From: a virus
IMG/VR virus record: IMGVR_UViG_3300042371_001161
Coordinates: 1 to 64,000 of that record
Direction: 5' to 3' (one strand)
DNA: 64,000 nt
The notes under the pieces are model-generated. The model made no database searches. It saw only the letters and a program-made list of their open reading frames with translations, and had not been told where the DNA came from. This document shows, piece by piece, positions 7,219 to 64,000 of the stretch (positions are counted from its first letter, which is position 1; each line of letters opens with the position of its first letter). The translations under genes and the position numbers were made by a program.

Positions 7219-7227
7219 GGACTCACT

Positions 7228-8832
7228 ATGGCTCAGAAGTTTCTTACAAATATTGACCTCAATAAAAATGCGGTAGTTAACGCCAGTTTTGAGGTCCTTA
7301 CTACCGACCCCTCAACCGAGCTTTTTGATGGCCGGATGTACTTCAATAGTGTCGATGGCGTCATTAAAATCTATGATTCAACTGCCGCTGCGTGGCGAAA
7401 AGTCGTTGCTGGCATTGGTGCGGCTGCTGGCGTAATAGCCGCGGGCACTCACGCCACAGCCCTAACGATAAGTGATTCCGGTGGGCAAATTTCAATTACC
7501 CCAAATCTTGCAACTTCTGCAAGTGCTGGTCTTTTCTCTGCAACGGATTTCACCAAACTTGCCGACGCTACCGCAGATGCAACTGCATCCAAGTTGGTTA
7601 TGCGTGATGCAAGCGGTCAGGCTAAAATCGCCACCCCTACAGATGCAGCACATATTGCCACCAAGGGGTATGTTGATGCCGCCCGTCAGGGCTTGGACGT
7701 AAAGCAATCGGTCAGAGTTGCCTCTGCTACTCCAGTAGCAATCGCCAACGGTCTTGAAGCCGGCGACACAATTGATGGAGTGACGCTTGCCGAGGGCGAC
7801 CGAGTCCTTCTTATGGGCCAAACCTCTGCATCAGAGAACGGAATTTATGTTGCCGTCGCTTCTGGTGCTGCTTCTCGCTCGTCTGACGCAAATGGTACGG
7901 CCGATACCGGCGAGCTCAAGCCAGGAACATTCACTTTCGTTGAAGAAGGTACTGACAACTCCGACAAGGGATTTGTTATCTCGACTAACGGAACCATCAC
8001 TGTCGGCTCTACTGCTATTGCTTTCACGCAGTTCTCCGGCGCAGGCTCGTTTACAGCAGGTAATGGTCTTTCCCAGAGCGGAAACACAATCAATGTCAAC
8101 GTCACCTCTAACAGAACAGCAATTACCGAAGATGCGATTGACATTTCAGCCAACTATGTTGGTCAGTCTTCAATCACGACACTTGGCATAATTGGTACAG
8201 GAACGTGGCAAGGCAATGTCATTGCTGGTCAGTACGGTGGTACTGGAGTAGCCAACACCGGCAAAACCATCACTTTGGGTGGAAACCTCACCACCTCTGG
8301 AGCACACGCTACTACGCTCACCACGACCGGCACTACGGGCGTAACTCTACCCACAACGGGAACCCTCTCTACCTTAGATGGTACTGAGACCCTTACCAAC
8401 AAAACGCTCACTGCTCCAGCATTGGGAACGCCTGTATCGGGAGTTCTCACTAACGCAACTGGACTCCCATTAACAACTGGCGTTACTGGAACGCTTCCTA
8501 TTGCCAATGGTGGTACTAACGCAACGACCGTAGCAGATGCCCGAGCGAACCTTGGCATCAAGACATCCGCTGGTGCCGCATCCACAACCACTTCAGCGCT
8601 TGCTCGAATTGCCGCCCAACCTTGTGCTGCAACAGTAGAAGGCAACCCAGCTTCGGTTACGACCGTCGAACACAAGTTCAATACAAAGAATGTTATTGTT
8701 CAGGTTTTTCAAGTGTCTACTGGTGAAACAGTCAACTGTGATGTCGTTCGTTCCACCGATGATGCAGTCGTGGTAACAATTAACGGAACCTCTATCACCC
8801 TGGACGAGTTCCGTATTGTCGTAACAGGCTAA
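7228..8832 (+). CDS. Tail fibre-like protein
   Basis: ATKGYVD...[10 protein letters not shown] motif, TLTNKTL and LPIANGGT fibre motifs, Thr/Gly/Ala-rich. Confidence 0.75.
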
Positions 8833-33404: not shown

Positions 33405-34958
33405 TTACAAGAAGACTATGGGATAGAGCGCAGACCAGTTAACCTGGCTTCCCTTACAGGCCGAAGGTGGAATTTTAAAGCCTTTGCCAAGTTCGTCGGT
33501 AGCTCTTCGAATGCATAGCTCTAAGTCGGTAGGTTTCCGAGGCGGGGGCGTTGGGATGATGGGGTCTTTCTTGAGTAGTGGCATAAATATTAATTGGTCC
33601 TCATTCATCCTTACTTCTTGAATTGTTATACTCACTGTTGCTCTACTAATGCTGCCTTGAGCGCTGTCACTAGAGCTCGAGCCGCCAGGGGTCCTTTGTA
33701 TTGAGTTGAATGACATCTCGGCAATCGCCCACTGGCGATATTTGACAGTAGAACTATTTGTTATTCCGCTAAATAGTGAATCGAAATTAGTAAATACGAC
33801 CAACTCTGGTGTTTCTGCCATTTGTTTAAGCAACCTGAGTTTATGTTCGCAAGAATCATAAAGACTTGACACGTAAGAAGGTTGACTGTCGACGACAAAT
33901 TCAAACGATATTTTCATAAGTTTGTTGTTTTTGTAATCGACAAGAGGGAAGTTCGCAACTCTTTCAATGTCAGTCCATGTTACGCCTATGTTCGAATAAG
34001 AAACATTATTGGGCTTTAAAGTAAATTCATACGTAAGAGCAGTTGTATTATCGGCCGTTCGTTGAATCATCGTAGGAAGGTTTTCGGGGGCTGTGGTGGC
34101 GATGGCGGCTTGTCCGCTGCTCACTCGTGCCCCGACATTCATGGAAGTAACGACAGTCGCCCTGCTTCTTTGTCCAAGTACATCTCTGTAACCATTGCTA
34201 TTTTGTGCACCAGAAACGACGCTGGATGATTGATTAATAGAAGAACCCGATATTGCCTTCTTGGTGAGGGAGGCAATGGTGGCCTCTGCTGCCTTGGTAG
34301 ACAATCCCGTAGATTGAAGTAACTTTATTTGTGCAAATGTAAAGTTTTCAAGATTCATATCTTTTGCATCGCCGATAAATTCATTCCAGCGCGACTGTGA
34401 GGGTTCGTCGAAGTCTGGCAGTTCCTGTAATGTTGGCGTATTTTCAAGGAGAAAAAATCTACGTAAAAGTGGGTGATACCAGTACTGCACCCAGTTGACG
34501 CTGTCCGTATCGTCAAACTTGCGCCACTTCGTTATTCTTGTTGACTTATATGGGTTCAGGGATAGGTCCGAGACGAGCTCATACCAGTCAAAAGTGTATG
34601 TTGTCGCTACGTATATTGTATTACCCCATACGATTTTTTCCCCAGATGGGACACTGTCATATTTTGCTGTTCTGGGGTTGGAATAAGATATCTCTTTTGC
34701 GCGAACCTCTTGGTCGTCGGACCACCCAAATTCATCACTTACCTCATATGGAATGAAATCGTAATCCGACACAGCCACGCCCTGAAAGGGAAACCAATAT
34801 GTGTCATCCGAAACTAAAACAAAATCTGCTGGAAAAATTGGATATTGAGTATTCGTAATTTGCTTGTATCTTTTTTTTATTGGATAGTTTTTACGTAAAC
34901 TACTATTACTAGAGTCCGTGTATCCCACTGTATGATAGTGAATGCTTCCTACTGCCAT
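33405..34958 (-). CDS. Tail-tube-initiator-like baseplate protein with long N-terminal extension
   Basis: C-terminal FTLKPNNVSY...LMKISFEF...RATVSITIQE resembles contractile-injection tube-initiator domains; follows the tape measure gene. Confidence 0.55.
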   Translation of the reverse strand: MAVGSIHYHTVGYTDSSNSSLRKNYPIKKRYKQITNTQYPIFPADFVLVSDDTYWFPFQGVAVSDYDFIPYEVSDEFGWSDDQEVRAKEISYSNPRTAKYDSVPSGEKIVWGNTIYVATTYTFDWYELVSDLSLNPYKSTRITKWRKFDDTDSVNWVQYWYHPLLRRFFLLENTPTLQELPDFDEPSQSRWNEFIGDAKDMNLENFTFAQIKLLQSTGLSTKAAEATIASLTKKAISGSSINQSSSVVSGAQNSNGYRDVLGQRSRATVVTSMNVGARVSSGQAAIATTAPENLPTMIQRTADNTTALTYEFTLKPNNVSYSNIGVTWTDIERVANFPLVDYKNNKLMKISFEFVVDSQPSYVSSLYDSCEHKLRLLKQMAETPELVVFTNFDSLFSGITNSSTVKYRQWAIAEMSFNSIQRTPGGSSSSDSAQGSISRATVSITIQEVRMNEDQLIFMPLLKKDPIIPTPPPRKPTDLELCIRRATDELGKGFKIPPSACKGSQVNWSALYPIVFL

Positions 34959-37900
34959 TATCGACGCTCCTTTTCTGAACGTTCCCTATCCTGTAATTTT
35001 GCCATAACCATCTGAGCTATAGCTTCTGGCGAGCTATTTCCGCCGTTTACCTCGATTGAGTAGTAGTTGTTAGTACTACCTCCACCGCTAGTAGCGGATG
35101 AGATTGGTCGCGCGACTGACGTGTCTCCGACTCCAGGGCCGGGAACGACGTGTAGATGGCGGTTTGCCGCACTTCCGTGGAACTCTGCGAATCCACCATT
35201 TGCATGAACCAACTTCGAGTATTGTCCAAGATTTTGACCAACAAGGTCGTACGCCGAGCCAGTGGCATGGTCGGAACTTGGTGAACCAAGAGCATAATTT
35301 CGCAAGCTAGACGTAACTGTTCTCTTGCCAGTTAGCTGGCCATTCATGGCGGCATGTCGGCTCATTGTTTGAGAAAGTTTGCTTGTGGAAGTATCTCCGA
35401 TAGCGCCTCCGCGAGGGGTAGAGGTATCGGGTGGAGCGAGGGTCTTTCCATCGTCGCTCATAACTAGGCCGTTCCTCCACCAGTCCGGCATTTCGCCTAG
35501 CGGAGCCGTAAAGAAACCTTCCATATTCGTATTAAATATTTTGATTGCCTCTTCCAGTCCTGTCGCCGCGGTGCCCATGTTTGTAGCCGCTGTTGCAATG
35601 TCGTCCAATGCAACCGTGTTTTCTTTTGCCAAACCTAACTCACCCATCCCATAGCCAGACAATGCGCTTTGGGCTCCGAGCGCCGGATTGTAGGCGCTTT
35701 CCAACCCTAATGTTCCGGTTGGAATCGCCCCTGCCCCGCCCTTGGGCGCATTTAGCAATCGTTGACGTAAGCCATCTTTGTCGTCGTAGGTTAAATCATA
35801 GTCCTTAATATCACCTAAGAGTTTAAGGAATTGTTCTGGGTTATTTTGAAGTAGCGTTGTTAGTTGCGACTCCAAAACCCCTTCTTCAATTTTCAGATTT
35901 CCATGCTCTTCGCTTGACAGAATGGTTCGAAGTTGCTCCGAGGCTGCACCTACCGCTCCTTTTTCCATGTCTCGCACCGACGCCTGATATATCGGGTCAT
36001 TTACGAATGTTTCGCCTTGTCCAGCGAGCTCAGCACCGGGAGCAAATATTTTCCCATCGGCATTCTTTCCGCCAAAAAGGTCAATGAATCCTTGGTACGC
36101 CATGATGCCGTCACCACCGGCAACTTGTAATAATTGATTAAATGCAGGCTCCATATGCGCACGCATTGCGGTTGTTTTTTCGTCAGCGGTCGTACTAGGG
36201 TCCCTCATTATGTCGCCCAGTTGCCTCAAATTTGAATCAAGAGCGTATGTTGCCTCTTCCTTCTCTCGTTGCGTCTTGAAGGCGTTGGCGCCAGAAAGGA
36301 CAATATCAGCTATTAGGTCGTTTAATTCTGCTCCGGTCTTTTTCAGGGAGCCTGAGAACTTTAAAAGAAGGTCGTTGTATTTTATTGTTGGGTCATACAG
36401 GTCGACGCCAAGCGTTTTTGCCAGCTGCTCTAGCTCTGCTCCGCTCTTACCCGTAGCTCGTGATAATGCGCCGATTCTTTCGGTGTTTTGTTTGTCTATT
36501 CTCGACAACTGCGCTTCGATGAGCGGGTCTGATGTTTTCATGATATGTCGGATAGAGTTGGTTGCTCTGGCTTTTAGAGCGTCTCTCTCCTCTGATGTTA
36601 ATTTTTTACCTGAATCTGTTTTGAAGTATTCGTCGAGTATGCCTTTGGCGTCATTAAATTCTGTTTTCCCATTACTCTCGTAACTTCCGCCACCAGCTGC
36701 AATGGCTGCCGTAATATCCCTATTAAACTGACCTAAAGTTTTTCCAAAGCTTGTCCCCAGGCCCACCATTGCGGCATCTCGGCCCTTGAGGCTTCCGCCA
36801 CCTTTTACTGTTTCTGCATTTCTCTGAAACTGCCGACCCGCTTTCTGGAGGTCAATCATGAAGAAGCTAGCCATGCTGGCGTCTATAATCTTTTTGGCCT
36901 TTTTTAACTTCTCTTTACCAGCATTCACCGCACCCATAATGCCTCCAACAAGAAGGCCCACTCCAGCACCTATCGCCGCGCCATAAGGTCCGAACATTGC
37001 GCCTGCGGCTGCTCCACCGGCTGCTCCAGCGAGTGCTCCAGCCTTCACTGACGTTGCCTTGAGCGCGGAGCCGATTCCTGCAACGGCAGCACCCAACATG
37101 GGGTTCACTTGCGCAACCATTCCGCCTAGCGCAATTGCTCCTTGCATTTCTTCAGGGGCGTATTGGCTTGCCAGTCCTAGTCCCATACCGACGCCCATTT
37201 TCGCGCCCATACTGTTGTTAAACTTTTTTACTCCTCCGCCAAATTTGCTATCATTTCGTGAAATTCTGTTCATATCGCGACGATAAGACAGTCTTCCTCC
37301 AAGCTTCTTTAGGCCTCCTTGCTTATCGCTTTCGCCCCTTCTGGCTAGCAAAGCCCCACGTGCCGTACCTAAATCCTTGTACTCGCCCTTCTCTGCATCC
37401 CATGCCCCAGAGTTCATCTGAGCGAAACCGCCGCGAATGGCGCCAAAGCCACGTCTAGCGAGGTATTGCCCCCTATCGGCGACTCCTACGGCCTTTAGCG
37501 CGCCACGCTTTGCGCTGTTGGCAAGACCTTGCCCGATGCTTACCGTACGACCGTCATTCTTGAATTCTGCGGTCGAGCCTTTCTTCGCCATTATTGCTTT
37601 GACTAGTAGTTTTCTATCGGCGAAAGTATCACTCATTCTGGGTGCACCTGGTCCTTGCTGACCACCCCCCATTACTCCGCCGATTTGAGTACCAACAATC
37701 CCTTTTTGTGTAGCTATTTGTCGCAGCTCATCCATTGAGCGGGCATTGAGAGATTGAGTGGCCCTAAATTTTGCGCTCAGTGGGAGGTTGACATTAGGAT
37801 TGACCGGCTTGGTCGTGCCGTCTGGATTTGTTATCTGACCCCTGTCCGCGTAAGGGTCTCTAGCGCGAGCTCCAGTGGCCGCATATACAACCCCACGGCC

Positions 37901-39817
37901 AATTCTGCTATCTATTTCTTTGCGTTTTACAATTCTGCCATCTATTCCGCTAAGAGCAACCTGATGTCGACTACCAGCTTTTGCGCTTCCAAAAAACTTC
38001 GAGTTCGGGTCGTTTGAAATAGCACGGAATTTTGAACCAGTGACCGACCCAGGCATGATTACTGGACTCGTCGCCGGATATCCGCTAGAAAGGGCCCCTC
38101 CGCCGCCCCCACCACGACCTGAGGCCAGCGATGACGTTGGGCCAGCCGGACCAAGATTTTTGCCACCAATAGAAACATTTTGAGCGTTAACGCTCATGGT
38201 CTTGACAGTTTGAACCCCTGGCATTAAACGGCCCTTTACGCCGCTCATTTTTTTACCTATAATCGAGAATGCCAGCAATGGTGCAAGGGCCGAAGCTAGT
38301 CCTCCGCCAGCCCCACCACTAAACATTTTGGAAATCATATTGAAGACGCTTGTTAGTCCAGATACTAAGTCACTCAAAAAGGGGAGCATATCCATGAACA
38401 TCTTTTTAAGATTCATGAAGAATTTTGATAAAGAATCGATGAGCTCCCCAACACGTTCGCCGAATTCTGCAACTTCATTTTTGTTTTCAACAAGAAGGTC
38501 CTTGAATAAGGTCAGGTTTCCGGCACCTCGTTTAATTGCCTCCCACACTGGAGTAAAAGCTTTATAAAGCACCTTTGCGCCATCTATGAGTGGGCGAGTT
38601 TGCTCAAGGACCATATCCCAACCACGCTTGAATTTAGAGAACCAATCTCCAATTCTGTCGAACATGCCTAACGCGCCAGGGAGGTATTCGCGAATCATTT
38701 TCACGAGCCAATTAGATGCTTTTTCTATTCCGCCAGCAAAGCCGTCGATTATGCCCGTCGCCCCAAAACTATATGAAATAGCGCCCATTATGCGCTGCAA
38801 GTCTCTGCGTATTGTCCCGAATACCCTCTCAAATGAAGCCTTGAGTGGCTCCAAGAACTGGTCGCCAAAATCAGCAAACTCGCCACGCAATCGACTAAAG
38901 TAGCCCTTCATCTGGGAGATTAAAGTACCGTTTACGGCTTCAAACTGACCAGCGACACCGCCTTTGTCCGCCAACTGCCCGGACATCAGAAGTTCTTTAA
39001 ATTGTTCCTTGGTTTTTATGGTTGTCCCTTTTAGGGCTTTTTCCATTTCTGGGCCAAGTTTTTTAGCTTCTGTTATTACGTCAGAAATACTCTTTTTACT
39101 GTTAGAAAGATTTTCGATAACAATAGATACTTGTTCTAGGCCCTTTGCGGGGTCTTGGCCCGCTGAACCAAAGTCCATCAAAGCCTTGATTGATGCACCG
39201 CTTTTATTTATTTGTGCGGTATTCATCGACTTGGACATGGTTCCGTAAGCCTTGTTGAGTGCTTCGACTCCGAGAGTCGCCAGACTTGCGTCGCTCTGTA
39301 GGTTCCGCATGCCCATTCTTGTCTGATTCATCGCTGAACCAAATGCAGGGGCTCCCTTGCCTCTGTAGGCATAAATGGCGGCCTGCTGCTCCCTGATAGC
39401 GGCGCTCGCTGCCGATATTGCGACGACTACCCCCGCCGCACCAGCAGAAAGCATTTGCATCGCCCCCCTATATGCTTTGACAAGTAATTGCCCAGCTGCA
39501 AATAGTGCGTGGACTCCTATCATCGCAGCTCCAAGGGCTGCCATTTCTATAACGACACCCTTGATAGCCATACCGAGGAACTTAGTGAGCCCTTTTCCTG
39601 CCATTTTGGCGCCAGCATCTATGGCGTCGAAACTGCGTTTCCAGCCTTTTGTGGTATTTGCTAGTTTACTACCCGATTGTTGAGCGAGAGCTTCGCCCCT
39701 GCCGCTGGAAAGTTTTTTTACTCTTTTTTCTAGTAATGAAAGCTGAGCTATTGCTTTAGTGAGCTCCCTAGTTTGGGCCTCAAACTTAATTTTAATATCA
39801 ACTATTTCATCAGCCAT
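34958..39817 (-). CDS. Tape measure protein with C-terminal M15-like (LAS) metallopeptidase domain
   Basis: 1619 aa Ala/Gly-rich helical protein after tube and chaperone genes; DHATGSAYD (H-x6-D) and HLHV. Confidence 0.9.
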   Translation of the reverse strand: MADEIVDIKIKFEAQTRELTKAIAQLSLLEKRVKKLSSGRGEALAQQSGSKLANTTKGWKRSFDAIDAGAKMAGKGLTKFLGMAIKGVVIEMAALGAAMIGVHALFAAGQLLVKAYRGAMQMLSAGAAGVVVAISAASAAIREQQAAIYAYRGKGAPAFGSAMNQTRMGMRNLQSDASLATLGVEALNKAYGTMSKSMNTAQINKSGASIKALMDFGSAGQDPAKGLEQVSIVIENLSNSKKSISDVITEAKKLGPEMEKALKGTTIKTKEQFKELLMSGQLADKGGVAGQFEAVNGTLISQMKGYFSRLRGEFADFGDQFLEPLKASFERVFGTIRRDLQRIMGAISYSFGATGIIDGFAGGIEKASNWLVKMIREYLPGALGMFDRIGDWFSKFKRGWDMVLEQTRPLIDGAKVLYKAFTPVWEAIKRGAGNLTLFKDLLVENKNEVAEFGERVGELIDSLSKFFMNLKKMFMDMLPFLSDLVSGLTSVFNMISKMFSGGAGGGLASALAPLLAFSIIGKKMSGVKGRLMPGVQTVKTMSVNAQNVSIGGKNLGPAGPTSSLASGRGGGGGGALSSGYPATSPVIMPGSVTGSKFRAISNDPNSKFFGSAKAGSRHQVALSGIDGRIVKRKEIDSRIGRGVVYAATGARARDPYADRGQITNPDGTTKPVNPNVNLPLSAKFRATQSLNARSMDELRQIATQKGIVGTQIGGVMGGGQQGPGAPRMSDTFADRKLLVKAIMAKKGSTAEFKNDGRTVSIGQGLANSAKRGALKAVGVADRGQYLARRGFGAIRGGFAQMNSGAWDAEKGEYKDLGTARGALLARRGESDKQGGLKKLGGRLSYRRDMNRISRNDSKFGGGVKKFNNSMGAKMGVGMGLGLASQYAPEEMQGAIALGGMVAQVNPMLGAAVAGIGSALKATSVKAGALAGAAGGAAAGAMFGPYGAAIGAGVGLLVGGIMGAVNAGKEKLKKAKKIIDASMASFFMIDLQKAGRQFQRNAETVKGGGSLKGRDAAMVGLGTSFGKTLGQFNRDITAAIAAGGGSYESNGKTEFNDAKGILDEYFKTDSGKKLTSEERDALKARATNSIRHIMKTSDPLIEAQLSRIDKQNTERIGALSRATGKSGAELEQLAKTLGVDLYDPTIKYNDLLLKFSGSLKKTGAELNDLIADIVLSGANAFKTQREKEEATYALDSNLRQLGDIMRDPSTTADEKTTAMRAHMEPAFNQLLQVAGGDGIMAYQGFIDLFGGKNADGKIFAPGAELAGQGETFVNDPIYQASVRDMEKGAVGAASEQLRTILSSEEHGNLKIEEGVLESQLTTLLQNNPEQFLKLLGDIKDYDLTYDDKDGLRQRLLNAPKGGAGAIPTGTLGLESAYNPALGAQSALSGYGMGELGLAKENTVALDDIATAATNMGTAATGLEEAIKIFNTNMEGFFTAPLGEMPDWWRNGLVMSDDGKTLAPPDTSTPRGGAIGDTSTSKLSQTMSRHAAMNGQLTGKRTVTSSLRNYALGSPSSDHATGSAYDLVGQNLGQYSKLVHANGGFAEFHGSAANRHLHVVPGPGVGDTSVARPISSATSGGGSTNNYYSIEVNGGNSSPEAIAQMVMAKLQDRERSEKERR

Positions 39818-46118: not shown

Positions 46119-46676
46119 CTATCTGTCGGAATTGGGTGGTCTTTCTATTGAAAGCACTTCTGGGGGCACAGAATTCGGAGGAGCCTCTATCGGAACCCAT
46201 GCTCTAGCGTAATTGTGTTCTTTTATTTTTCTGACTTTGAACAGATTTCCGTCAAGCATTAATGCAAGTTCTTCTGCTCGCATGCAGAGAATGTCCTGGA
46301 AATCGGATGCGCCGTACTTTCCGGAACGCCTGACGGACCTGATGATTTTAGAAGCTTTCTCCGCAATCACGTGTGAATGCCCTCGATTTAGGCGAAGGTG
46401 CATCATCATCGCGTCAACCTGGTCGACGTCATGAAAAACTACTGGAATTTTCCCCTCGGTCTTTTTTAAAATCTGCGGAATACTGGTTGCCAAAATAAAA
46501 CGCTCGGAACCATCAATTATCTCCCCGGTAGATAAGCGAGCATGTATCGGTTGAATGAATCCAAGCTCAGATAGCGATGCTGAAATTATTAACATCTCCG
46601 GACGCAGGGTGTACGTAGCTCGCCACTCAGGAGTAGATAAGCGCGATGGCTCTACGTATTCAATATTAATATTCAT
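46119..46676 (-). CDS. ParB/Srx-like protein (IbrB/YbdM-like, degenerate active site)
   Basis: GFIQPI, IIDGSERF, LRLNRG. Confidence 0.75.
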   Translation of the reverse strand: MNINIEYVEPSRLSTPEWRATYTLRPEMLIISASLSELGFIQPIHARLSTGEIIDGSERFILATSIPQILKKTEGKIPVVFHDVDQVDAMMMHLRLNRGHSHVIAEKASKIIRSVRRSGKYGASDFQDILCMRAEELALMLDGNLFKVRKIKEHNYARAWVPIEAPPNSVPPEVLSIERPPNSDR

Positions 46677-47805
46677 ATATGTCTGCTCTCTCTAGTTCTA
46701 CTGCCCTGACAGTGTGCGCCTTTGTCTTGGGTCCAACTGGTGTTGGAGAGTTAACGTCAATGTCGTTCAGCATCAAATTTCTTATAAGCCAGCTAACTGG
46801 GTACCCGTGTGGGTCTGATAGGTGCTTTTTTCTAAACTTAGAAACATAAGCACGGGCTTCCGTTTGACGTCGTTCGCCCACCAAGTATTGTTCGATGAAA
46901 CTTGATGCACCATCAAATCCAAACTGAGAGTAGATATCAATCAGCTTCTCCGAGTCAAACTCTGGCCAAAGTCTGCGTTGTGCGTCTATGTATGGGAAGC
47001 ACTCGTAAAGCCTGTCGTAGAATTCTGGTTCCGTAGCAATAACGTCTCCAATCCGCCTTATTGCAGTCGCATGCAAGGGGATTCCAACTCGCGTGTTGCT
47101 TCCGGTGATTGTTGCGAGGTCATAGTACTTGCAGTATTCTGCGTCGTGTTCCTCGATGATGAATTTAAAAACATCATCCGTATTCCAGTCATATATGACT
47201 TTGGCGAACTTGAGTGGTATTCCCTTTTTTAACTTGTACGGCGTATTTATGTAATTCTCGTGAAGTTTCTGAACAATCGACCTGTATCTAACCATCGACT
47301 CGCTTGCTCTGACTCCAGTCAGAAAGGCAACATTTCCTTTTTTGCCCTGCATTGTGTAGTAATCGGTCTGTTCAGGCAATGAAACGCTGTGACTTAGTCC
47401 AAAATTCTTGCCGCTGATTGCCCATGGGGGCATCGGTCGCACCCACCTGCCTTGTTCAAATCTTTCTTGACTCCACAGGAGGGTCGTTATCCTGTAACCA
47501 AGAACCCAAATTTCTGCTGGATATGGCAAGCAGTACCACTCCATGTCAACCCAATCGTAGTTGCGGACCCTCTCTACGTAGTCCATGACGACAGGGCTCA
47601 CCATTTCTTCGTCGCGGAAAATCACCTTAACAGGGCCTAGGCCACGCTCTTCGTGGACCTCCTTGGCAAGGAGAAGAACGGCGGTTGAGTCTTTGCCGCC
47701 AGAAAATTGAACACACACCGTGTCAAAGGTGTCGTATACGTGACGTATTCTTTGACGAGCAGCGTCAACGCAGCTCATATCCAAGAACAGGCGTTGACGA
47801 GTCAT
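46666..47805 (-). CDS. PP-loop PAPS-reductase-family protein (IbrA/YbdN/DndC-like)
   Basis: VQFSGGKDS PP-loop, VIFRDEE, TGVRASES..R, IYDW...DV. Confidence 0.88.
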   Translation of the reverse strand: MTRQRLFLDMSCVDAARQRIRHVYDTFDTVCVQFSGGKDSTAVLLLAKEVHEERGLGPVKVIFRDEEMVSPVVMDYVERVRNYDWVDMEWYCLPYPAEIWVLGYRITTLLWSQERFEQGRWVRPMPPWAISGKNFGLSHSVSLPEQTDYYTMQGKKGNVAFLTGVRASESMVRYRSIVQKLHENYINTPYKLKKGIPLKFAKVIYDWNTDDVFKFIIEEHDAEYCKYYDLATITGSNTRVGIPLHATAIRRIGDVIATEPEFYDRLYECFPYIDAQRRLWPEFDSEKLIDIYSQFGFDGASSFIEQYLVGERRQTEARAYVSKFRKKHLSDPHGYPVSWLIRNLMLNDIDVNSPTPVGPKTKAHTVRAVELERADIYEY

Positions 47806-48005
47806 TAGTTTTTGTGCATTTTGTTGAGGCGGAGTATTTCTGTCCTGAGTTCGTTATTCTCATTTAGAGCTCTCTCGGCAACAGCCTTCCAATATGCGGA
47901 GTCCGCTATGTGCTTGTCCATGATGTCCAATATCTTCGGACAGTCATTCTTGGAGACCCTAGCCACTTGTAGTAGATGTCTGTATACCTGTTCTTGTTGG
48001 TCCAT
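47805..48005 (-). CDS. Small coiled-coil hypothetical protein
   Basis: 66 aa ORF translationally coupled between ParB and PP-loop genes. Confidence 0.6.
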   Translation of the reverse strand: MDQQEQVYRHLLQVARVSKNDCPKILDIMDKHIADSAYWKAVAERALNENNELRTEILRLNKMHKN

Positions 48006-48006
48006 A

Positions 48007-48888
48007 TTAAACCTCTATGTGTTGATTAATAAAATCTATCAGCTTCTCAGCGGTAGTTGCTCCGACTACTGCGGGGTCGGATTTTATCCACTTCAAAAAT
48101 TCATACCATCTAGCCTGCTGTGTCGTGTCGTCAAATACAATTGTGCACTGAACGACGGCTCGTGGGGCCGAACCCGGAGAGACGGTCGTCGAGCCACGTT
48201 TGACGGCATCATTTTGGTCGAAGCCTGAACGTATTTCAATGTGTTGCTTGCCATCTTCCGTATGGGTAACGTTCACCATATTACGGTCTAGTTCTGGCGC
48301 AGTAGGTGATGCGTTTGTGCTTGTTTTGTTCTCTCCATAATTGTCATAGTCGTCATAACTGTCAAATTTTGCAACAACAGTAAATCCGTTGTCTGAAGAC
48401 CCAGTGATAGTCGGTGGAATAAATCCAGCCCCAGGCTCTATTACTCTATTGTCCTCACGAATGAGTTTTTGTTCTATTTCGGCAGTGTAAAATTCATCCC
48501 ATCCGAGTCCGTTGATGAGCTCCGGGTAGATATCTGCCAGTTCAAGTATTACTTCATTCAATAACTCTGGCTCGGTATATCCAAGCTCCATCGTTCTGTT
48601 GTCTGCAAGTGCAAAGGCAATAGCTCGCTCGCCATCAACCGCAAAGCTGACGGCTGCTATTTTGTCCCAGCCCAACCTTTTTGCTGCCTCTAGCTGGTGA
48701 TTTCCAGCGATAACTGTCGCCGTTCCATCATCGTTGGGTCGAACAACTATTGGTTTGATTTGTCCAAATTCGCGATACGAAGCCATAATTGCTCCTACGT
48801 CACCGCGTCTGGGGTTTGATTCTAATGGCAGCAGCGTCTCGATGTCTACGGCCATTTGAATGAGTGATTCGTGAATTCCATGAGTCAT
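48007..48888 (-). CDS. ParB-like nuclease domain protein with acidic C-terminus
   Basis: NPRRGD, EFGQIKPIVV, IAGNHQLEAAK.LG, ADNR. Confidence 0.85.
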   Translation of the reverse strand: MTHGIHESLIQMAVDIETLLPLESNPRRGDVGAIMASYREFGQIKPIVVRPNDDGTATVIAGNHQLEAAKRLGWDKIAAVSFAVDGERAIAFALADNRTMELGYTEPELLNEVILELADIYPELINGLGWDEFYTAEIEQKLIREDNRVIEPGAGFIPPTITGSSDNGFTVVAKFDSYDDYDNYGENKTSTNASPTAPELDRNMVNVTHTEDGKQHIEIRSGFDQNDAVKRGSTTVSPGSAPRAVVQCTIVFDDTTQQARWYEFLKWIKSDPAVVGATTAEKLIDFINQHIEV

Positions 48889-50801: not shown

Positions 50802-51593
50802 TTATTTCCAGGCTGGGCAAATTGACTTGAAGCCGCACCAATTGCAAAGAATTGACTTGTTTGGCTCAAAATGACCCTGAGCAATTCTCAGGTCGATGCC
50901 GGCTTTAACCTCAGCAATGACAGAAGCAACATTTGCAATGTCTTCTTCGGTTACTCGTTTTTCAAATCTGACGCCGTCTTTTAGATAAAGCAATTCAATC
51001 TCAAAGTTTTTTGCCTCTATTCCGGCACTTCCTAGAAGTTGAGTGTAAATTATTAATTGGAAATACTTATCATCAACATACTGTTTTTTGGGAGTTTTCC
51101 CGGTTTTGTAATCACAAACCTTGGCCGTATCTCCATCCACATGAAGGCGGTCTATGTATCCGTGGAGCTTCACTCCAGAGATTTCCCCCTCTACATGCTC
51201 TTCAATCGCCCATGGCTGAACCTCCATAGGTTGCTCTAGGGCCCAAACATTTTCAACACACCACCAAGCGGTCCACCTAAAAAGTTTGATTTCTTTTTCT
51301 GAACGAATAATGGTTTTTACCATTTCTTCCCATTTTGACTCCCACAGGTCGCGAGCAATCAATCTCGCAGTGTCTTGAGTTCTTTGCTCAGGAGGAAGGG
51401 CGTACATTGTTTCGAGAATCTCATGCACGAAATTTCCAAGCATTGTGGATTCAGTGGGAGAATCTTGCAAGCCATCAATTTTAGTGAACTTAAACTTTAA
51501 TGGACACTGACGGAATGTTCCAATTGAAGACGGTGAAAGCATGTTTGGGGCTTTCATGACAACCGACTGTTCACTTGTCATTTGGTGACTCAA
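50802..51593 (-). CDS. RecB-family PD-(D/E)XK exonuclease
   Basis: LSPSS...CP, GNFVHEILE, GYIDRL...DYKTGK, QL.IY, C-terminal CNWC...CP. Confidence 0.9.
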   Translation of the reverse strand: MSHQMTSEQSVVMKAPNMLSPSSIGTFRQCPLKFKFTKIDGLQDSPTESTMLGNFVHEILETMYALPPEQRTQDTARLIARDLWESKWEEMVKTIIRSEKEIKLFRWTAWWCVENVWALEQPMEVQPWAIEEHVEGEISGVKLHGYIDRLHVDGDTAKVCDYKTGKTPKKQYVDDKYFQLIIYTQLLGSAGIEAKNFEIELLYLKDGVRFEKRVTEEDIANVASVIAEVKAGIDLRIAQGHFEPNKSILCNWCGFKSICPAWK

Positions 51594-52269
51594 TAATTGT
51601 CGCTCCGAAAGATAAACGCATTGCTTCTACTATGAGAGCCTTAATTTCTTCTTCTGTCACTGTAGTGCGGGTCGGCTTTGGCTTTCCAGAAGAGTATTTC
51701 GCCCAAAAGTCATTTAGGGACTCTTTTTGCTCTTTGTCAAGAGTCTTTGTGACGCCTACAAAGTTGTTCCATTCTTCGTCCAATTCAGAAGATGGTTCAA
51801 TATTGGGGCTCGGCTCAACGTGAGGCATGGATGCGCCAATTGCGTCTTCGGCATCCATGGCATCGGAAGAGCGTGCTAGATAAAGTCCGACACCAAGTAG
51901 CTGTGCTGCTTTTTTAAGGGCATCCGAGACTGCTCCCTTGAAATCGTTGCCAAGGTCAACAGGCTTATTGTCTTTTCTCTGACGCTTTACTGACTGTCCA
52001 CCGAAGCCGTGCTTAGTTATCGTGCATCCATCAATCGTTGCCGTAAGGGAAACGTGCGCAATTATTTCGTCGGTATCGATTAAATCACGAGCAACAGAAA
52101 TGATTTCGAATGACCAGTTGCTCATTCCCAGCACCTTATTTAGGCGATTTATAACTTCACTAATTGGCAGATAAATTAACTCAACACCACTTTTTATGAG
52201 TGTTCGTTCCATTTCTTCTGGAAACGGCTCCGCCAAGAGACGGGCGATATCGTTGCTGTTCTGTGTCAT
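51571..52269 (-). CDS. Rad52/Rad22-family ssDNA annealing protein
   Basis: LIYLPISEVINRLN.VLG..NWSFE, GAVSDALKKAA..LGVGLYL. Confidence 0.88.
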   Translation of the reverse strand: MTQNSNDIARLLAEPFPEEMERTLIKSGVELIYLPISEVINRLNKVLGMSNWSFEIISVARDLIDTDEIIAHVSLTATIDGCTITKHGFGGQSVKRQRKDNKPVDLGNDFKGAVSDALKKAAQLLGVGLYLARSSDAMDAEDAIGASMPHVEPSPNIEPSSELDEEWNNFVGVTKTLDKEQKESLNDFWAKYSSGKPKPTRTTVTEEEIKALIVEAMRLSFGATIIESPNDK

Positions 52270-52812: not shown

Positions 52813-54126
52813 TTAGAGGAGTATAGAAGCTTTCCTGCGTCTAGGCAACCCCAAGCCGGTAAGAAAAGTAAAAGCCCCAACAGCGGAGTCTACTTGGTCG
52901 TCGTGATTAGCGGACTCGGGGAAAGATGAAAATTCATCAAGGAAATCTGTGAGCCATGGAGCCCTAACTAGGCGAACATTCCCGTTTGCAGCAGATGCAG
53001 CGAATGGACGCGCTCTCGTGACCTTGTCTCCGGTTGGCCTCATAGCTCCAAAATCGTACCCAGGAACCACATATCTGGCGTACTGGTCAACTAGCGCCTT
53101 GCCAGATGAACCAGGCTCCTGCTCCATCCTGACGGCCACTCCGTATCCGTCCTCTGCCGCCGTCTGGGCAATTAGTTGTTCTACTTTCTCGCCCCTTACT
53201 CGTGCTTTTTTGATGTCAAGAATGTACGAAACGCCACCGTCGAACATCATGAGGGTTCCGACTGTCCAGTCAGGGTCAGGGTATGACGCGGTGGGCTCGG
53301 ATGCTGCAAGGTCCCAGAATCTAACGACTCTGGCAGAATTGGTTATGACGGGGATTTCGCTGGGGTCAATAATTATGAAAGATTCGCGGTCAAAAAGGCT
53401 ACCGAGGGTCGTCGACCACCAGTCGCCTTCTTCTAGACGTCGCCGTTCAACGGGGTCTAGGGCAGACAGGGCCTGCCTATATGAATCTGCATCAATTCCT
53501 GGGTTGTCTTTAAGCGTGGATGGAACAAAGACCCGTCCAGTCTCTCTGCCCTCTACGATGAACCGCTGACGAACCCAATTCGGAGCAGGGTTGGATGCCG
53601 CCCTCATCCGAAGCGGAATCTGCGCCAAAGGACCACTTGCGGGACGACGCAGACGAGAGAAAAGGTATCTATAGTCGGATTCTCGGATTTCTGTAACTTC
53701 GTCCATCCCTATGAACTGAAACTCAGAACCTTTGTATCTCAGATAGTCGTTAACGTTATTTAGGTAGCCGAATGAAATGCGAGCCCCAGATGGGAAGGTG
53801 GCCACGAAACTATTGTTATTCCAGTGAACATCGTCATAGTTACTCATCCACGATTTAAAGCGGTCCATCAAGGCACCTGGCAGAGAGAGGTCGGCAAATG
53901 TTCTACGGAAGAGGATTGCTGAATAGCCAGGGACATCCACATACTGTAGGGCGGCCATCAAAAGGGCTGAGGACTTGCCTCCACCAGCCGCCCCACCAAA
54001 GAGACCTTCAAGGCAGTTTGTCCTCAAAAAAACTTTTTGATTCAAAGATGGCTCTTCTGGGCAAAAAGGAGGCAGCTTGGGGCTCAGATACTCTAGAACT
54101 TCTTCCCAGTTAGATTTTGATGCCAT
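52813..54126 (-). CDS. terL: Terminase large subunit
   Basis: GGAAGGGKS Walker A, FIGMDEVT Walker B, MRAASNP, RFWDLAAS, HDDQVDS nuclease motif. Confidence 0.95.
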   Translation of the reverse strand: MASKSNWEEVLEYLSPKLPPFCPEEPSLNQKVFLRTNCLEGLFGGAAGGGKSSALLMAALQYVDVPGYSAILFRRTFADLSLPGALMDRFKSWMSNYDDVHWNNNSFVATFPSGARISFGYLNNVNDYLRYKGSEFQFIGMDEVTEIRESDYRYLFSRLRRPASGPLAQIPLRMRAASNPAPNWVRQRFIVEGRETGRVFVPSTLKDNPGIDADSYRQALSALDPVERRRLEEGDWWSTTLGSLFDRESFIIIDPSEIPVITNSARVVRFWDLAASEPTASYPDPDWTVGTLMMFDGGVSYILDIKKARVRGEKVEQLIAQTAAEDGYGVAVRMEQEPGSSGKALVDQYARYVVPGYDFGAMRPTGDKVTRARPFAASAANGNVRLVRAPWLTDFLDEFSSFPESANHDDQVDSAVGAFTFLTGLGLPRRRKASILL

Positions 54127-54469: not shown

Positions 54470-56581
54470 ATGCGTTGGAACCCGTCTCAAAATAAAAATA
54501 TAATCCCCCCGTCCCGCAAGGACCTGGGCTATGGAGCTCCGGTATCCATAAACCCGTCCCTAGCAGGGAAAGCGTATAAGGATGGATGGGACATTGAACG
54601 CGCCTATCGCGAGGGAATGTCCAAGATTACTTGGGTCAATAGATGTATTGATGCGATTGCTGGAAATCAGGCTCGCCTTCCAATTATTCTTAGGAAAGAC
54701 AACTCTAATCAGGGGGAAATAGTTCGCGGCCGCGAGGCCAACAGGTCTACCCTCTTAGAGCTCTTGAATAATAAGGCGAATGTAGGAGAAAACTCTTTTA
54801 TTTTCCGATACAGATTGTCGGCTCAGCTGATGCTCGGTACTCGAGGGGCATTCGTAGAGAAAATTAGAGGACGGGATGGGGGAATTATTGCCCTCAACCT
54901 TCTTCCACCTCAATCAACGGCACCAATACCGGACCCCAAAAAGTTCGTATCAGGGTACGAAGTACAAATGCCCTACGGAGAAAAGCAGTTCTTAAAGCCA
55001 GAAGATGTTTGCTGGATAAGGAGACCGCACCCTCTCGACCCTTATCTGTCCCTTACGCCACTGGAAGCGGCTGGGGTTGCCATTGAGATAGAAAACCTAG
55101 CCAAAATCTACAACCGCAACTACCTGCTTAATGATGGTCGTCCTGGCGGCATTTTGGTTGTTCGTGGAGAGATGGAAGAAGACGATAAGGAGGAGCTTAG
55201 AAATAGGTTCCGCGGCAATCTGGCAAGGGCTGGTCATACAACAGTTATTGCTGCCGATGACGGTGTTGATTTCGTCGATACTTCGGCCAATCCGCGCGAT
55301 GCGGCATATGTTCAGATGCGTCAAATAACAAAAGAAGAAATTCTGTCAGCATTTGGTGTTCCTGAATCCGTCATAGGAAACGCTTCTGGAAGAACATTCA
55401 GTAATGCCGGAGAAGAAATCCGTGTTTTTTGGATGGAAACAATGCTCCCCCATCTTGAGCCAATCGCCAGAGCTCTTGATGAACTCGATGACAAGTATTA
55501 TCTAGATTTTGACACGTCAGAAGTCCCAATTCTTATGCTCTACAAGCAGGAAAGAGACAGGTACCTGTTGCAGGAGTTCCAGACTGGCTTAATTAGTGCA
55601 AACGAGTATAGAATCGGTTCTTCTCGTAAAGAAGTTGAGGCAGACCTCGCAGACTCCTTGCTCCAGAACCCCAATCTCATTCCGATTGCTAACACCAAGA
55701 AGAAAATGGAAGAAGGCCAGACTGAAGTCCCAGGTATGCCAGGAATGCCTCCGGGAATGCCAGGAATGCCGCCGGGAATGCCGGGAATGCCTCCAGGTGT
55801 GCCAGGAATGCCCCCAGGACCAGTTCCGCCGGGCGGCGAACCTGTACCGCTGGACGTCAATACGATGGCTGGGGCACTTGCGGAGTCCGCAGCCAGTGGC
55901 CAGCTTGCGCAAACAACAACCCCACCAGAGGCCTTTGGAGGCGGCGTACAGGCTCCAATGCCCCCAGGACCTATGTCCGTGGCATCGTCGCCGGATAACG
56001 AGATACAGGTAAAGTCCACGGAAGAAAAACAAGAGACCAAAGACGCAATTGACCGCAATGAACAGGCGATAGAGCGATGGACGAACATTCTAGCTCGTGG
56101 CATGGAGAGAGTTATTGAGCGCCAGCAACGAGTAGTTCTTGAAAAGGCAAGCGGGACAAAATCAAGGAAAGCCCTAATGCACGGCACGCTTGATATTGAA
56201 TCCGTATTGTCAATAGATACGTGGAACAAGCAGTTCGATGAGGATATTCGTCCTGTTGTGTCATCAATTATTAATGATTCTTTTGAATCGAGAGTTAATG
56301 ACGCATCCACAAACGGTCTCAAAATCAAAGCCTTGCCAGCAAAAGATGTTCGAGCAATGGTTGATGCACATACATTGAGAATTAAGAAAATTAACGAGTC
56401 TCATTTCAATGAAATTAACTCTTTAATGCTCAAATCTTTCGTGTATGCGGATGAAGAAAAACGGTTTAGTTTCTTTCGCGATGGTCTCGTAGAAATGTTC
56501 ACGGATTTTTTTGCGCACCAACAAGAATTACTGGCAGAGCGCGAGACAAGGTCGGCATGGAGTTTCGGCCAGACAGTTTAA
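54470..56581 (+). CDS. Portal protein with PGM repeat linker and C-terminal extension
   Basis: WVNRCIDAIA, GTRGAF, RRPHPLDPY.SLTPLEAA, NDGRPGGIL, EILSAFGVP, ISANEYR. Confidence 0.92.
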   Translation: MRWNPSQNKNIIPPSRKDLGYGAPVSINPSLAGKAYKDGWDIERAYREGMSKITWVNRCIDAIAGNQARLPIILRKDNSNQGEIVRGREANRSTLLELLNNKANVGENSFIFRYRLSAQLMLGTRGAFVEKIRGRDGGIIALNLLPPQSTAPIPDPKKFVSGYEVQMPYGEKQFLKPEDVCWIRRPHPLDPYLSLTPLEAAGVAIEIENLAKIYNRNYLLNDGRPGGILVVRGEMEEDDKEELRNRFRGNLARAGHTTVIAADDGVDFVDTSANPRDAAYVQMRQITKEEILSAFGVPESVIGNASGRTFSNAGEEIRVFWMETMLPHLEPIARALDELDDKYYLDFDTSEVPILMLYKQERDRYLLQEFQTGLISANEYRIGSSRKEVEADLADSLLQNPNLIPIANTKKKMEEGQTEVPGMPGMPPGMPGMPPGMPGMPPGVPGMPPGPVPPGGEPVPLDVNTMAGALAESAASGQLAQTTTPPEAFGGGVQAPMPPGPMSVASSPDNEIQVKSTEEKQETKDAIDRNEQAIERWTNILARGMERVIERQQRVVLEKASGTKSRKALMHGTLDIESVLSIDTWNKQFDEDIRPVVSSIINDSFESRVNDASTNGLKIKALPAKDVRAMVDAHTLRIKKINESHFNEINSLMLKSFVYADEEKRFSFFRDGLVEMFTDFFAHQQELLAERETRSAWSFGQTV
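55732..55822 (+). repeat. Coding repeat PGMP/PGMPP within the portal
   Basis: ccaggaatgcc / ccgggaatgcc units. Confidence 0.8.
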
Positions 56582-56707: not shown

Positions 56708-59700
56708 ATGCCATCAGAATTGTTTGAATATAAGTCGTCTACGCTCGGGCACTCCGACTCCATCAATTTGGATGAAGCGCAGGGAATTGTCGAATGCTTC
56801 GTGGCTGGCATCGGCAACAAGGACTCTGTGGGCGACATCGTTGCCACTGGAGCATTCACGAAGAGCCTCCAACGCCGTAAGCCGCGCGTTGTCTGGGGAC
56901 ACAGTTGGAATGACCCCATTGGCAAGGTTCTAGAGATTTACGAAGTTCCGAACACGGATAATCGCCTTCCTATGAAAATGAAGATGGCCGGAATTGGTGG
57001 CCTGTTCGCTCGAGTTCAGTTCAATCTCAATTCAGAAAAAGGTCGCGAAGCATTCGCCATGGTCGCCTTCTTTGGCGAAGAGCAGGAGTGGTCGATTGGT
57101 TACAAGACACTTCGAGCTCAGTTTGACCAGAAATCCCAAGCAAATATCATTTATGAACTTGAGTTATATGAGGTATCTCCGGTTCTGCATGGCGCAAACC
57201 AGCTAACTGGGACTATTTCCGTTAAGTCCGAAGAGTTGTCCGGTGGAATCTTGATGTCCATGATGAACGAAGAAAACCCAATTGACAAGGCAGAGATAGA
57301 AAAGCAGCTTGCTGCAATTTTGGGCGCAAAAGTATCTTTAATGGAAGTTAACGACGAAGAGATTACGTTTGCGCGAAGAATGGACAACGGAGAAGTTGGC
57401 CGCTACAAGTGTGGATTCAGCAATAATCGCGGACATTATATGTTCGGTGCGCCGCGCCCCATTGTTGTAATGCCCGTGCGTAAGCCCATTGCTCCTGTAA
57501 GCGCAATGCCAATGGCGATGCCAGGTATGCCCCCAAATGAGCCACAAAGAATTGTTCGGCCTTCTCAAATGCCATCAATCCCAGTTGCTATTAAGCCAGG
57601 CGAAAACGGCAACCAGATAGTTCCTTTGCCACCAGTGCAATACGAAAACGATAATGGAAGTCGATTTGACCCAAGTAATCTTGACCAAGAAGAAGCTGAC
57701 TTAAGAGATGCTCTTTTAAAAATCGTAAAGCGTCACGGAAAGTTTAACGAAGATTCCGAGGGAGTATGGGCAGCGTATACCCCTGCTGCACAAAATGAAG
57801 TTGCCGGAATCGGCGTCAAGTGCTCCAACTGCGTCTTTTATCAGGGTGGAAGCGCCTGCAAGATAATCGACATGGAAGTAGAACCTGAAGGTAAGTGTCG
57901 TTTTGCCGTCATCCCAAAGGGCGTTGTCAAGGGAGCCGGCTCAAAAGCATATGAACTCGACGAGGAATTCGCCGAAGAAGATTACGTCGCTGACCTCGAG
58001 GTGAAATACCCCGGGGAATTAGCAGTTGCAGGACTTCGTGGAGTGGTCGGCAAGCGGAGAAAGAAGCGTCGGAGCTTTAAGTTCTTGAGTGAATTTGGTT
58101 CCAAGAGTGAAGATTTTGAAGACAAGCCATACTTACTTCCAGTTGTACCTCAGTTCGCGTTCCAAGTAAAACAAGTTCTTGACCCAATCTTTGATTACCA
58201 TGGTGTTGATTCTTACGTCGACACAAGCGGTATCTTCATGACTTCTGGCGTTACTTACGAATTGATTGAGGCAGTCGACAACGCTGTCGCAAATTTAAAA
58301 AAAAAATCCTTAAGTGAAAACAACCTAGAGTGGAAAGCAGCCGGGTATCGCCTCGGCAGAGCTATCAGCAGTCGATTAATTGACCGCCCAAACATCGGCG
58401 GAGGTCGTTCTCGCGGTCGTTTCTTCACATCTGTGGGTGCGGAAGACTTTGACCCATTCACTGCACGCGACTCCAACCTTAACGGCATCGTAGGAGAGGG
58501 ACTGTTCCTGCGTGGAGTTCCGCTTGCCGTAAATGACCCAACACCAGATGGTCCTGGCTCTATTCGTAACCCCAAGCCATCCCCCAGGCAGGTTGCGAAG
58601 CCGAATGCTGCAGCAATTTCTCGAGCGGAAATTCAAGTAGAGAAAATAACAAAACCTAAAGAGCGCCAGAAACTTTCCTCTGGAAGCGAGCTTGTAAATC
58701 TTCCGCGAATAGACGACCCGGATGTTGATTCGGCAGAAAAATATGGCGCAGCAGAGTCGCAGCGTGACGAGCTTCAAGGCGTTTTGGATGGAGCATCAGA
58801 TTCTGACCAAATAAAGAAGTTAAAGAAGGCCATTGCGGAAATCGACAAATACATGGAACGTGTCGAGAAGATGGCCGAAGGCGAAATGGCTGATACTGAA
58901 AAGCCAAAGAAAAAGCCCGTAAAGAAGCAGGTAGAAAAGACCAGTCAGGGTCTTTCAAGCGGCTACGGCAAGTATCTAAATAAGCCCGAGGCGAAGCGGA
59001 CGCAAGACGAGCGCCGCAAATATGACGGCCCCCTGTCCTCGCTTTCATCAGGAAAGTTGGCAGACAAGGCAGAGCTTCCCGAAGGCTCCAGCCAGCTTGA
59101 AGAGTTATACAAGGAAATGGCAAAAGATATTGTCGCTATTTTGCAGGAACTCGCCAACAATCCAGACGCATCAAAAAGATGGGAATTGCCATGGCGTAAT
59201 GCCGAGAATTATGCGCGGAATCCAACTAGTGACCGCATCTACCAAGGCATGAATCAGATGATTTTGTCCCTTACGGGCTCAGCTCGCGGCTACAAAATGA
59301 ATCGATGGGCCGGAGAGGGACAGTGGAAAAAGTTAGGCGGCAAAGTAAAACCGGGAGGCAGAAACAGGGGAGTGCAGGTTCTCGTTCCTCGTGAAGGACG
59401 AAGCTTTACTGATTCAACTGGCAAGCAAGTTGAAATGGGTCGCTACTATTCTGTTCAAACGGTATACAACGTCGATGAAATTGCAGGACTCCCAGAAAGT
59501 TTCTACGAGCTTGGTGATGTAGAAATAAACCAAGAGCAACGGTTGCAGGATATAGAAAATGTCATTAAGGAAATAGGTCCTTCTTTTGTCGAATCTCTAG
59601 GCTCGCAGGCTTTTTATCGCCCCGCCACCGACAAAATTCATATGCCTGCATTTGAACAGTTCAAGGATGCTTTGGCTTTTTATGGAACTGCAATGCATGA

Positions 59701-64000: not shown

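Follow-up and report, generated by a model that had tools for sequence, protein, structure and literature searches.

Capsid proteases are fused to scaffold in herpesvirus UL26/UL26.5, P2 gpO and lambda C/Nu3, and there the scaffold part is destroyed. How phages load and deliver large enzymes is understood for few models, namely the internal proteins of T4, the virion RNA polymerase of N4 and the ejection proteins of phiKZ-like phages. In T4 and in phiKZ/SPN3US-like giant phages, the prohead protease cleaves many head-packaged proteins at a short motif, and these proteins are then ejected into the host (PMC7411985, PMC10052503). Polyvalent proteins were defined by Iyer, Burroughs, Anand, de Souza and Aravind in 2017; ArdC-N, MPTase and helicases are listed among their typical domains, and packaging into the capsid was predicted for those borne by phages (PMC5512222). 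Assemblin-like peptidases were reported to be rare among them and 'always at the C termini', as a description and not a definition of the class (PMC5512222). Here we analyse protein A, a giant open reading frame (ORF) product of an uncultured lake phage, in which an HK97-type prohead protease stands at the N terminus, in one frame with ArdC and a helicase. Its gene begins near the end of a 64,000-nucleotide stretch (the window), positions 1 to 64,000 of IMG/VR virus record IMGVR_UViG_3300042371_001161. Could the maturation protease itself serve as the loading device? In the protein A family this appears to be the case, and we regard it as somewhat probable that protein A is a cargo polyprotein targeted to the head, with the phage's own capsid-maturation protease at its front.

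A protease-led giant protein and its family

The parent record comprises 119,748 bp, of which the window holds bases 1-64000; CheckV puts its completeness at ~71%, and the genome is estimated at roughly 170 kb. From the ATG at 56708 on the + strand the frame is open through base 64000 (56708..64000 in the window, by frame translation), which amounts to 2431 codons without a stop. The original prediction had claimed a single open frame of at least this length, and the claim is borne out: the first stop in the parent record lies at 65371, and the complete ORF (56708-65371) encodes 2887 amino acids (aa), or 320 kDa. Domain hidden Markov models run on the retrieved protein recovered all the domains that had been claimed, and the four named Pfam families (S78, ArdcN, MPTase-PolyVal and UvrD-helicase) all score above their curated cut-offs.

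The S78 prohead serine protease domain occupies aa 1-215 (56708..57352, + strand). Peptidase_S78 (PF04586) matches aa 27-170 with an E-value of 1.2e-11 and 45.4 bits (the cut-off is 21, and the genome scan gave 51.1 bits), and the PHROGs match to head maturation protease has an E-value of 4.5e-26. The predicted His/Ser/Glu residues can be assigned to His65, Ser129 and Glu155, which are invariant in an alignment of 19 lineages, as are K9, K173, K433 and K543. His65 and Ser129 align with His65 and Ser114 of HK97 gp4, which we take to be the catalytic residues of that enzyme. The domain is present at 67% identity or more in 119 of 120 family members. A scan of the 119.7-kb record for proteases of the S78, S77 and ClpP types gave the N terminus of protein A as its sole match, and a sequence search of PDB with the protease region returned nothing.

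The protease and a conserved extension of ~450 aa precede a variable cargo. In protein A this cargo begins with a segment that is, by sequence, a complete ArdC homologue, made up of the ArdC-N ssDNA-binding domain and the zincin MPTase (59054..60253, + strand; phmmer, Pfam and PHROG). Pfam places ArdcN at aa 799-907 (E 1.7e-15) and MPTase-PolyVal at aa 948-1071 (E 1.7e-39), the HExxH motif is intact at aa 997-1001 as foreseen, and the PHROGs match is to anti-restriction protein (3.7e-65). Against the solved R388 ArdC (6sna/6i89) phmmer gives an E-value of 1.8e-40 over chain residues 24-293 of 297. An SF1 (UvrD-like) helicase with large insertions follows (60266..63745, + strand; about 128 kDa), recognised by Pfam (UvrD-helicase, aa 1659-1710, E 4e-11, and AAA_19), by PHROGs (DNA helicase, phrog_1967, 7e-25), by a P-loop at about aa 1239-1264 and by motifs at positions 1248, 1670, 1696, 2212 and 2256. 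The cargo had been predicted to be of the polyvalent, anti-defence type, and ArdC-N, MPTase and helicase are indeed typical domains of that type (PMC5512222).

The helicase that had been predicted, together with something 'beyond' it, is followed by a C-terminal module of 537 aa. Defined by conservation, it starts within the window (63758..64000, + strand) and continues to genome base 65368 (aa 2351-2887). These last 537 aa are found in 71 of the 120 relatives, always at the extreme C terminus, in proteins of 2850-4760 aa. The AlphaFold2 (AF2) model of the module is of fair confidence (mean predicted local distance difference test, pLDDT, 73.5). As modelled, the module has no convincing match to a known fold: with the whole model of more than 400 residues, Foldseek found nothing convincing in PDB (best E 0.58) or in BFVD (best E 0.07), and a wide VIA search reached a best Z of 4.8, for one small helical sub-domain alone.

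How is such a protein built across its family? Residues 216-533 are present in 111 of the 120 relatives and residues 534-655 in 70; ArdC occurs in 98 and a helicase in 47-89. Sigma-70 region 4, pentapeptide repeats and DEAD helicases are also found among the cargo of relatives. Judged by this segment-by-segment conservation, the design of protein A is that of a conserved head, a variable middle and a conserved tail.

The N-terminal module contains a mobile domain of ~85 aa (aa 325-408; 57680..57931, + strand) that has no Pfam model and carries four cysteines, C372, C375, C384 and C397, invariant among the 19 aligned lineages. This Cys4 domain is 60-77% identical to a domain of many small phage proteins that also contain DUF5824, Dps/ferritin or ParB-like parts, and the genome holds one copy of it. 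An assignment to PF19141 was rejected; the domain adjoins PF19141. As a lead only, it may be a head-docking element or a metal-binding adaptor. In the unrelated phage L162, the portal gene and a giant ORF (at least 2331 aa) have a Cys4 protein (7001-8146) between them.

The fusion recurs widely. A search with aa 1-480, restricted to lengths of 1587-5053 aa and drawing on JGI, ENA, Logan and NCBI, retrieved 294 database proteins that share the N-terminal module at 50-97% identity, and nearly all of them combine S78 with cargo domains. When the protease domain alone was used in an exhaustive HMMER search, 257 cluster representatives came back at E ≤1e-30. In all of the 150 best (at least 58% identity) the protease is N-terminal; their lengths range from 180 to 5358 aa. 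The survey of S78-cargo fusions suggested along with the original prediction thus yields the 294 long proteins and, among the 150 closest protease representatives, 84 of 1000 aa or more. The N-terminal 660 aa are encoded in 64 viral contigs, in an ORF mostly of 2900-3700 aa where the sequence suffices. A megablast search of the protein A ORF against 50,697 phage records found no match; tblastn against cultured phages matched the protease domain alone, and the fusion is in no cultured phage of the collection.

The A run and a predicted short form

A homopolymer of ten A residues (A10; 58297..58306, + strand), read as the codons L-K-K-K at aa 530-533, is a predicted slippage site. It is the sole A run of nine or more on the + strand of the record. 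Other homopolymers of this length amount to two T runs and one G run, all outside called ORFs. These lie at genome positions 103853 (T9), 113771 (T10) and 114784 (G9); the T10 follows a short GC-rich inverted repeat and resembles an intrinsic terminator.

Among 65 related loci the run is pure and in frame in 53, as A10 in 23 and as A11 in 30, and two have A9. Pure A runs are retained at 47-50% protein identity. In two related loci the N-terminal ORF ends at 536 and 548 aa and the cargo continues in another frame. Both of these breaks lie in A9, and the closest in-frame relative of one has A10. As to a stop or frameshift between protease and cargo, the frame is uninterrupted here, and a one-base difference in the A run splits the two in a few assemblies. 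Since the break is confined to the conserved A run, we read it as a design feature and not as a refutation of the fusion.

Removal of one A leads to a stop 0-1 codon later, and addition of one A to a stop 3-4 codons later, in 17 of 17 run-bearing lineages. The stop positions are retained despite at least ten different downstream nucleotide contexts and differing encoded residues; at a random position in these ORFs the chance of such stops is 3.3%. What the four run-less representative lineages lack is exactly a cassette of 18 aa. At least six database proteins of 534-548 aa, some on contigs of up to 180 kb, end 1-6 residues past LKKK.

Bacterial RNA polymerase slips efficiently on runs of nine or more A/T (PMC5009743). 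In dnaX of Thermus thermophilus, a nine-A/T run with nearby stops in both non-zero frames yields tau and gamma at a ratio of ~1:1 by transcriptional slippage (PMC5009743). A conserved A run with nearby stops is the same design, and it predicts a protease-only product of ~535 aa. By this analogy, a form of ~59 kDa would exist beside the 320-kDa fusion, close in size to the stand-alone protease of cultured relatives. The shift could be transcriptional, translational or a DNA polymorphism, levels that look alike in sequence.

Junction peptides and genomic setting

The tetrapeptide LSSG is concentrated in a few very large proteins of this genome. A six-frame count gave four copies in protein A, three in giant B (2849 aa; genome 67258-75807), ten in giant C (3305 aa; genome 92519-102436; contains a DnaQ-like exonuclease) and two in the tape measure protein (1619 aa; 34958..39817, - strand; at aa 36 and 576). 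Outside these four, two other ORFs have one each. Less than 0.1 copy is expected per giant, and none of 2000 shuffles reached the observed counts. The giants A, B and C and other large proteins were compared with one another, and no paralogy was found.

In protein A, the first site (aa 656-659; 58673..58684, + strand) marks the end of the conserved N-terminal module, the second lies at aa 749-752 (58952..58963, + strand), the third at aa 779-782 (59042..59053, + strand), 17 aa before the ArdC-N domain, and the fourth at aa 2347-2350 (63746..63757, + strand). A LASG at aa 1183-1186 (60254..60265, + strand) is LSSG in close relatives. The linker around site 656 and the first 31 residues past site 2347 are modelled as disordered. 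Over protein A and its 120 relatives (121 family members) there are 8.4 sites per protein on average and 18 at most; the first is nearly always at ~560-830, just past the N-terminal module, and almost none falls within the first ~560 aa. Within polar linkers, the usual context is [RKGS]-LSSG-[RKA]. The exonuclease of giant C (2506-2697) is bracketed by LSSG sites at 2461 and 2753, and the two sites of the tape measure (aa ~35 and ~580) are positionally conserved in 21 relatives. From their sequence context, the junctions fit a release of modules by proteolysis. No earlier description turned up in literature searches that paired LSSG with prohead protease, or maturation protease with ArdC. The densest junctions seen, 17-21 of the form G-F-x-S, occur in the family members P0271 (5358 aa), P0277 and P0285, which span 4100-5400 aa.

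Some lineages carry variants of the motif (LASG, FSSG, GFAS and G-[LM]-[RS]-S). The A-type and B-type giants of relative L158 share the unusual variant SG[LM][RS]S. On contig 3300042558_005069, protein A has F-variants alone (three FSSG and one FASG) and RFASG is the form in the tape measure; both proteins carry LSSG in three L-variant genomes. Because the motif co-varies between unlinked head and tail genes, one reader acting in trans would be expected in each genome, and the way in which the variant tracks the genome argues for a single trans-acting protease. Proteolysis of the tape measure by the enzyme that acts on the junctions of protein A is implied.

The gene for protein A lies among packaging and head genes. 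The large terminase subunit (TerL; 52813..54126, - strand) is identified by Pfam Terminase_6C/6N and phrog_979 (E 5e-106), and the portal gene (703 aa; 54470..56581, + strand; Pfam Phage_portal, E 1.3e-51) is directly 5' of protein A; an 88-aa ORF is also upstream, after TerL. The order is TerL, portal, A, a 580-aa ORF, giant B, three ORFs and the HK97-type major capsid protein (MCP; 80485-81834; PF05065 E 6e-41, HK97 chains E about 1e-50). TerL, portal, A, an ORF of ~460-490 aa and B keep this order in two distant relatives. The 580-aa ORF has no family match; the idea that it encodes a capsid protein was rejected, as it matches neither the MCP of Gordonia phage Gray nor any family. The MCP has about 100-160 extra N-terminal residues that form a delta-like coiled-coil region. 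Nearest among cultured phages are actinobacteriophage myoviruses (Bendigovirus; Brevibacterium phage Cantare), with 39% identity in the protease and 44% in the portal. In Gray, a stand-alone protease gene of 455 aa (gp34) is followed at once by the capsid gene.

Elsewhere in the window, two ParB-like genes stand on either side of a PAPS-reductase-like gene (phrog_2302, E 8e-76); this cluster (46119-48888, - strand) sits between tail and recombination genes and is possibly a cassette for DNA modification. Directly downstream of the terminase gene are those for an exonuclease (phrog_69) and an Erf-like single-strand annealing protein (50802-52269, - strand).

Mechanism, alternatives and relation to known systems

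How might these elements work together? The protease moiety would bring the entire polyprotein into the prohead during assembly, a route also taken by prohead proteases and protease-scaffold fusions. Inside, the LSSG junctions would be cut by a phage protease, for which the S78 domain of A is the likeliest candidate, and the cuts would free ArdC (about 45 kDa), a helicase of about 128 kDa, the 59-kDa C-terminal module and small peptides from the linkers. Released together with the DNA, these products would then protect or process that DNA in the next host. Slippage of RNA polymerase on the A run would give mixed messages, and from them the ~59-kDa protease-only form and the 320-kDa fusion; it would thereby set the ratio of free to cargo-laden protease, much as in tau/gamma of Thermus dnaX or in retroviral Gag/Gag-Pol. 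For the interpretation as a cargo fusion, first offered in the original prediction, speak the conserved architecture, the place in the head module and a junction peptide that fits proteolytic release; packaging, cleavage and injection of protein A we infer. The earlier model also needs additions, namely the predicted protease-only short form, the conserved flanking modules and the presence of the junction peptide in the tape measure as well. Cleavage at the junctions by some protease is likely, and whether the S78 domain is the cutter is about evenly balanced. Only tentatively do we propose all parts as one scheme: a Gag/Gag-Pol-like strategy in a widespread lineage of uncultured tailed phages, in which dnaX-type slippage would set the ratio of protease to polyprotein, an LSSG code read by S78 would process the head cargo of the three giants and the tape measure, the code would co-evolve in each genome, and Cys4 would dock the chain in the prohead.

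Several observations weigh against this view. The AF2 model of the N-terminal part (aa 1-670) is poor (pLDDT 43), and a second protease could lie in the missing part of the genome, the record being ~71% complete. The A run is missing in 10 of the 65 loci, and the short form is therefore not essential. A comparison of the S78 domain between F-variant and L-variant lineages yielded no substitution that would set both F-variant lineages apart. At the MCP boundary, a candidate cleavage site, the motif is LSS-R rather than LSSG. The tape measure, which is not inside the head, carries conserved LSSG sites, and the cutter may thus act outside the prohead or be a different enzyme. Finally, the C-terminal ~135-aa module of giant C is a papain-like candidate and is conserved in the relative tested.

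Is the long ORF real, and is its A run programmed? An assembly chimera or a read-through of separate genes might be suspected from the frame breaks in two loci and a few database proteins, yet every break is at the same homopolymer and the unbroken fusion recurs in independent samples and sources. This explanation is in effect refuted; the fusion is not an artefact. The run itself might be a tolerated mutational hot spot or a phase-variable DNA locus, with the A9 alleles as errors or dead variants. Such a view draws on the use of AAA for 53% of the Lys codons in the ORF, on the Lys-rich nature of the linker, on the errors to which homopolymers are prone in assemblies and on the loci without a run. 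It is nonetheless unlikely, as the run stays pure in proteins that are only half identical, the stops in both frames persist through all those contexts against the small chance expected per position, run-less lineages lack the whole cassette at once, and runs of this length do slip in bacteria (PMC5009743).

If the fusion is real, what cuts it, and where? The junctions might be cut by another enzyme, be it the zincin MPTase of ArdC, the papain-like module of giant C or a host protease, and S78 would then mature the capsid only. Autoprocessing by MPTase was proposed by Iyer et al. (PMC5512222), and the sites in a tail protein, the conserved giant C module with its weak papain-fold toxin-domain leads and the fact that no specificity-linked change was found in S78 all favour such a cutter. 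Against it stand a 66-kb relative with nine LSSG sites and no MPTase, and the many family members without MPTase in protein A. The papain-fold leads have scores of 0.88-0.89, below the tool's reliability line, and point to toxin domains and not to processing proteases. The S78 domain, for its part, is present in every family member examined, though members were retrieved through this very module. The HK97 capsid is cut at K103|SLGS, as deduced from a precursor sequence of 385 residues and a mature chain of 282, and this site resembles basic-(small)-L-small-S, which we count in favour of S78 as the cutter. The MCP carries a conserved [QH]-L-[ST]-S-R-E-I-K-S-I-G (aa 93-103) where its delta-like region ends, and a divergent genome has K-G-L-G-S-S at the same boundary; from sequence, this boundary motif is possibly a maturation cleavage site related to LSSG. 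A different cutter is a minority view, doubtful but to be taken seriously. Alternatively, the chain might be no packaging device at all, but be cut in the cytoplasm, with ArdC and helicase serving replication, repair or superinfection exclusion in the producing cell. Virion incorporation of the cargo is our deduction, DNA metabolism is a conceivable task for the helicase and for the exonuclease-bearing giants, and a cutter whose sites also lie in the tape measure could act elsewhere than in the head. However, the gene lies between portal and MCP, the protease fusion has been kept over hundreds of lineages despite cargo turnover, as in delivered polyvalent proteins, and ArdC in its plasmid setting acts on incoming DNA (PMC5512222). 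A purely cytoplasmic role is hence improbable.

If the head-targeted polyprotein is confirmed, the combination of protease, junction peptide and cargo would supply a simple, modular recipe by which any chosen protein could be packed into a capsid. The family would also hold hundreds of candidate anti-defence effectors that act early, as a natural catalogue with recognisable junctions on either side, and it would be a rare instance among bacterial viruses in which slippage controls how much of a structural enzyme is made relative to its cargo-bearing form. Each of these points can be tested with synthetic genes, for which culture of the phage is unnecessary. Taken together, a cargo led by its protease, a junction code that co-evolves and a cassette of the dnaX type make a concrete and testable mechanism for loading and dosing injected enzymes.

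With respect to known systems, the protein A family fits the polyvalent class. Like other polyvalent proteins, protein A is giant, has at least two conflict-type domains, is encoded next to the terminase and portal genes and varies in domain content between relatives. It differs in five ways: the N-terminal protease, its apparent maturation role, the flanking modules, the junction code and the slippage cassette. The protease (aa 1-215) is highly conserved and apparently the phage's own maturation enzyme, and Iyer et al. 2017 describe neither the LSSG code nor the conserved C-terminal module nor the poly-A cassette. None of the five was found described in the literature searched.

HK97 gp4 and gp34 of Gray share with protein A the S78 family, His65 with the catalytic Ser, and a gene position after the portal. 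They are proteins of 225-455 aa with the capsid gene directly next, whereas protein A carries ~2670 aa of cargo in frame and is separated from the capsid gene by ~15 kb of further genes. The protease-scaffold fusions offer an analogy in their N-terminal maturation protease joined to a part that is kept in the procapsid, in the two products per locus and in self-processing. The C-terminal part of protein A, in contrast, consists of enzymes that are predicted to be kept and delivered, and its two products would arise by slippage and not from nested starts. With Thermus thermophilus dnaX (PMC5009743) the A run shares a length of at least nine A/T within the ORF, nearby stops in both non-zero frames and, for protein A as a prediction, a truncated product that lacks the C-terminal domains; gene and biology are different. 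T4 and the phiKZ/SPN3US-like phages encode their cargo in separate genes with propeptides and use an S77-type protease that cuts after Glu, whereas the cargo of protein A is covalently linked to a protease of the S78 type and bears an LSSG-like motif.

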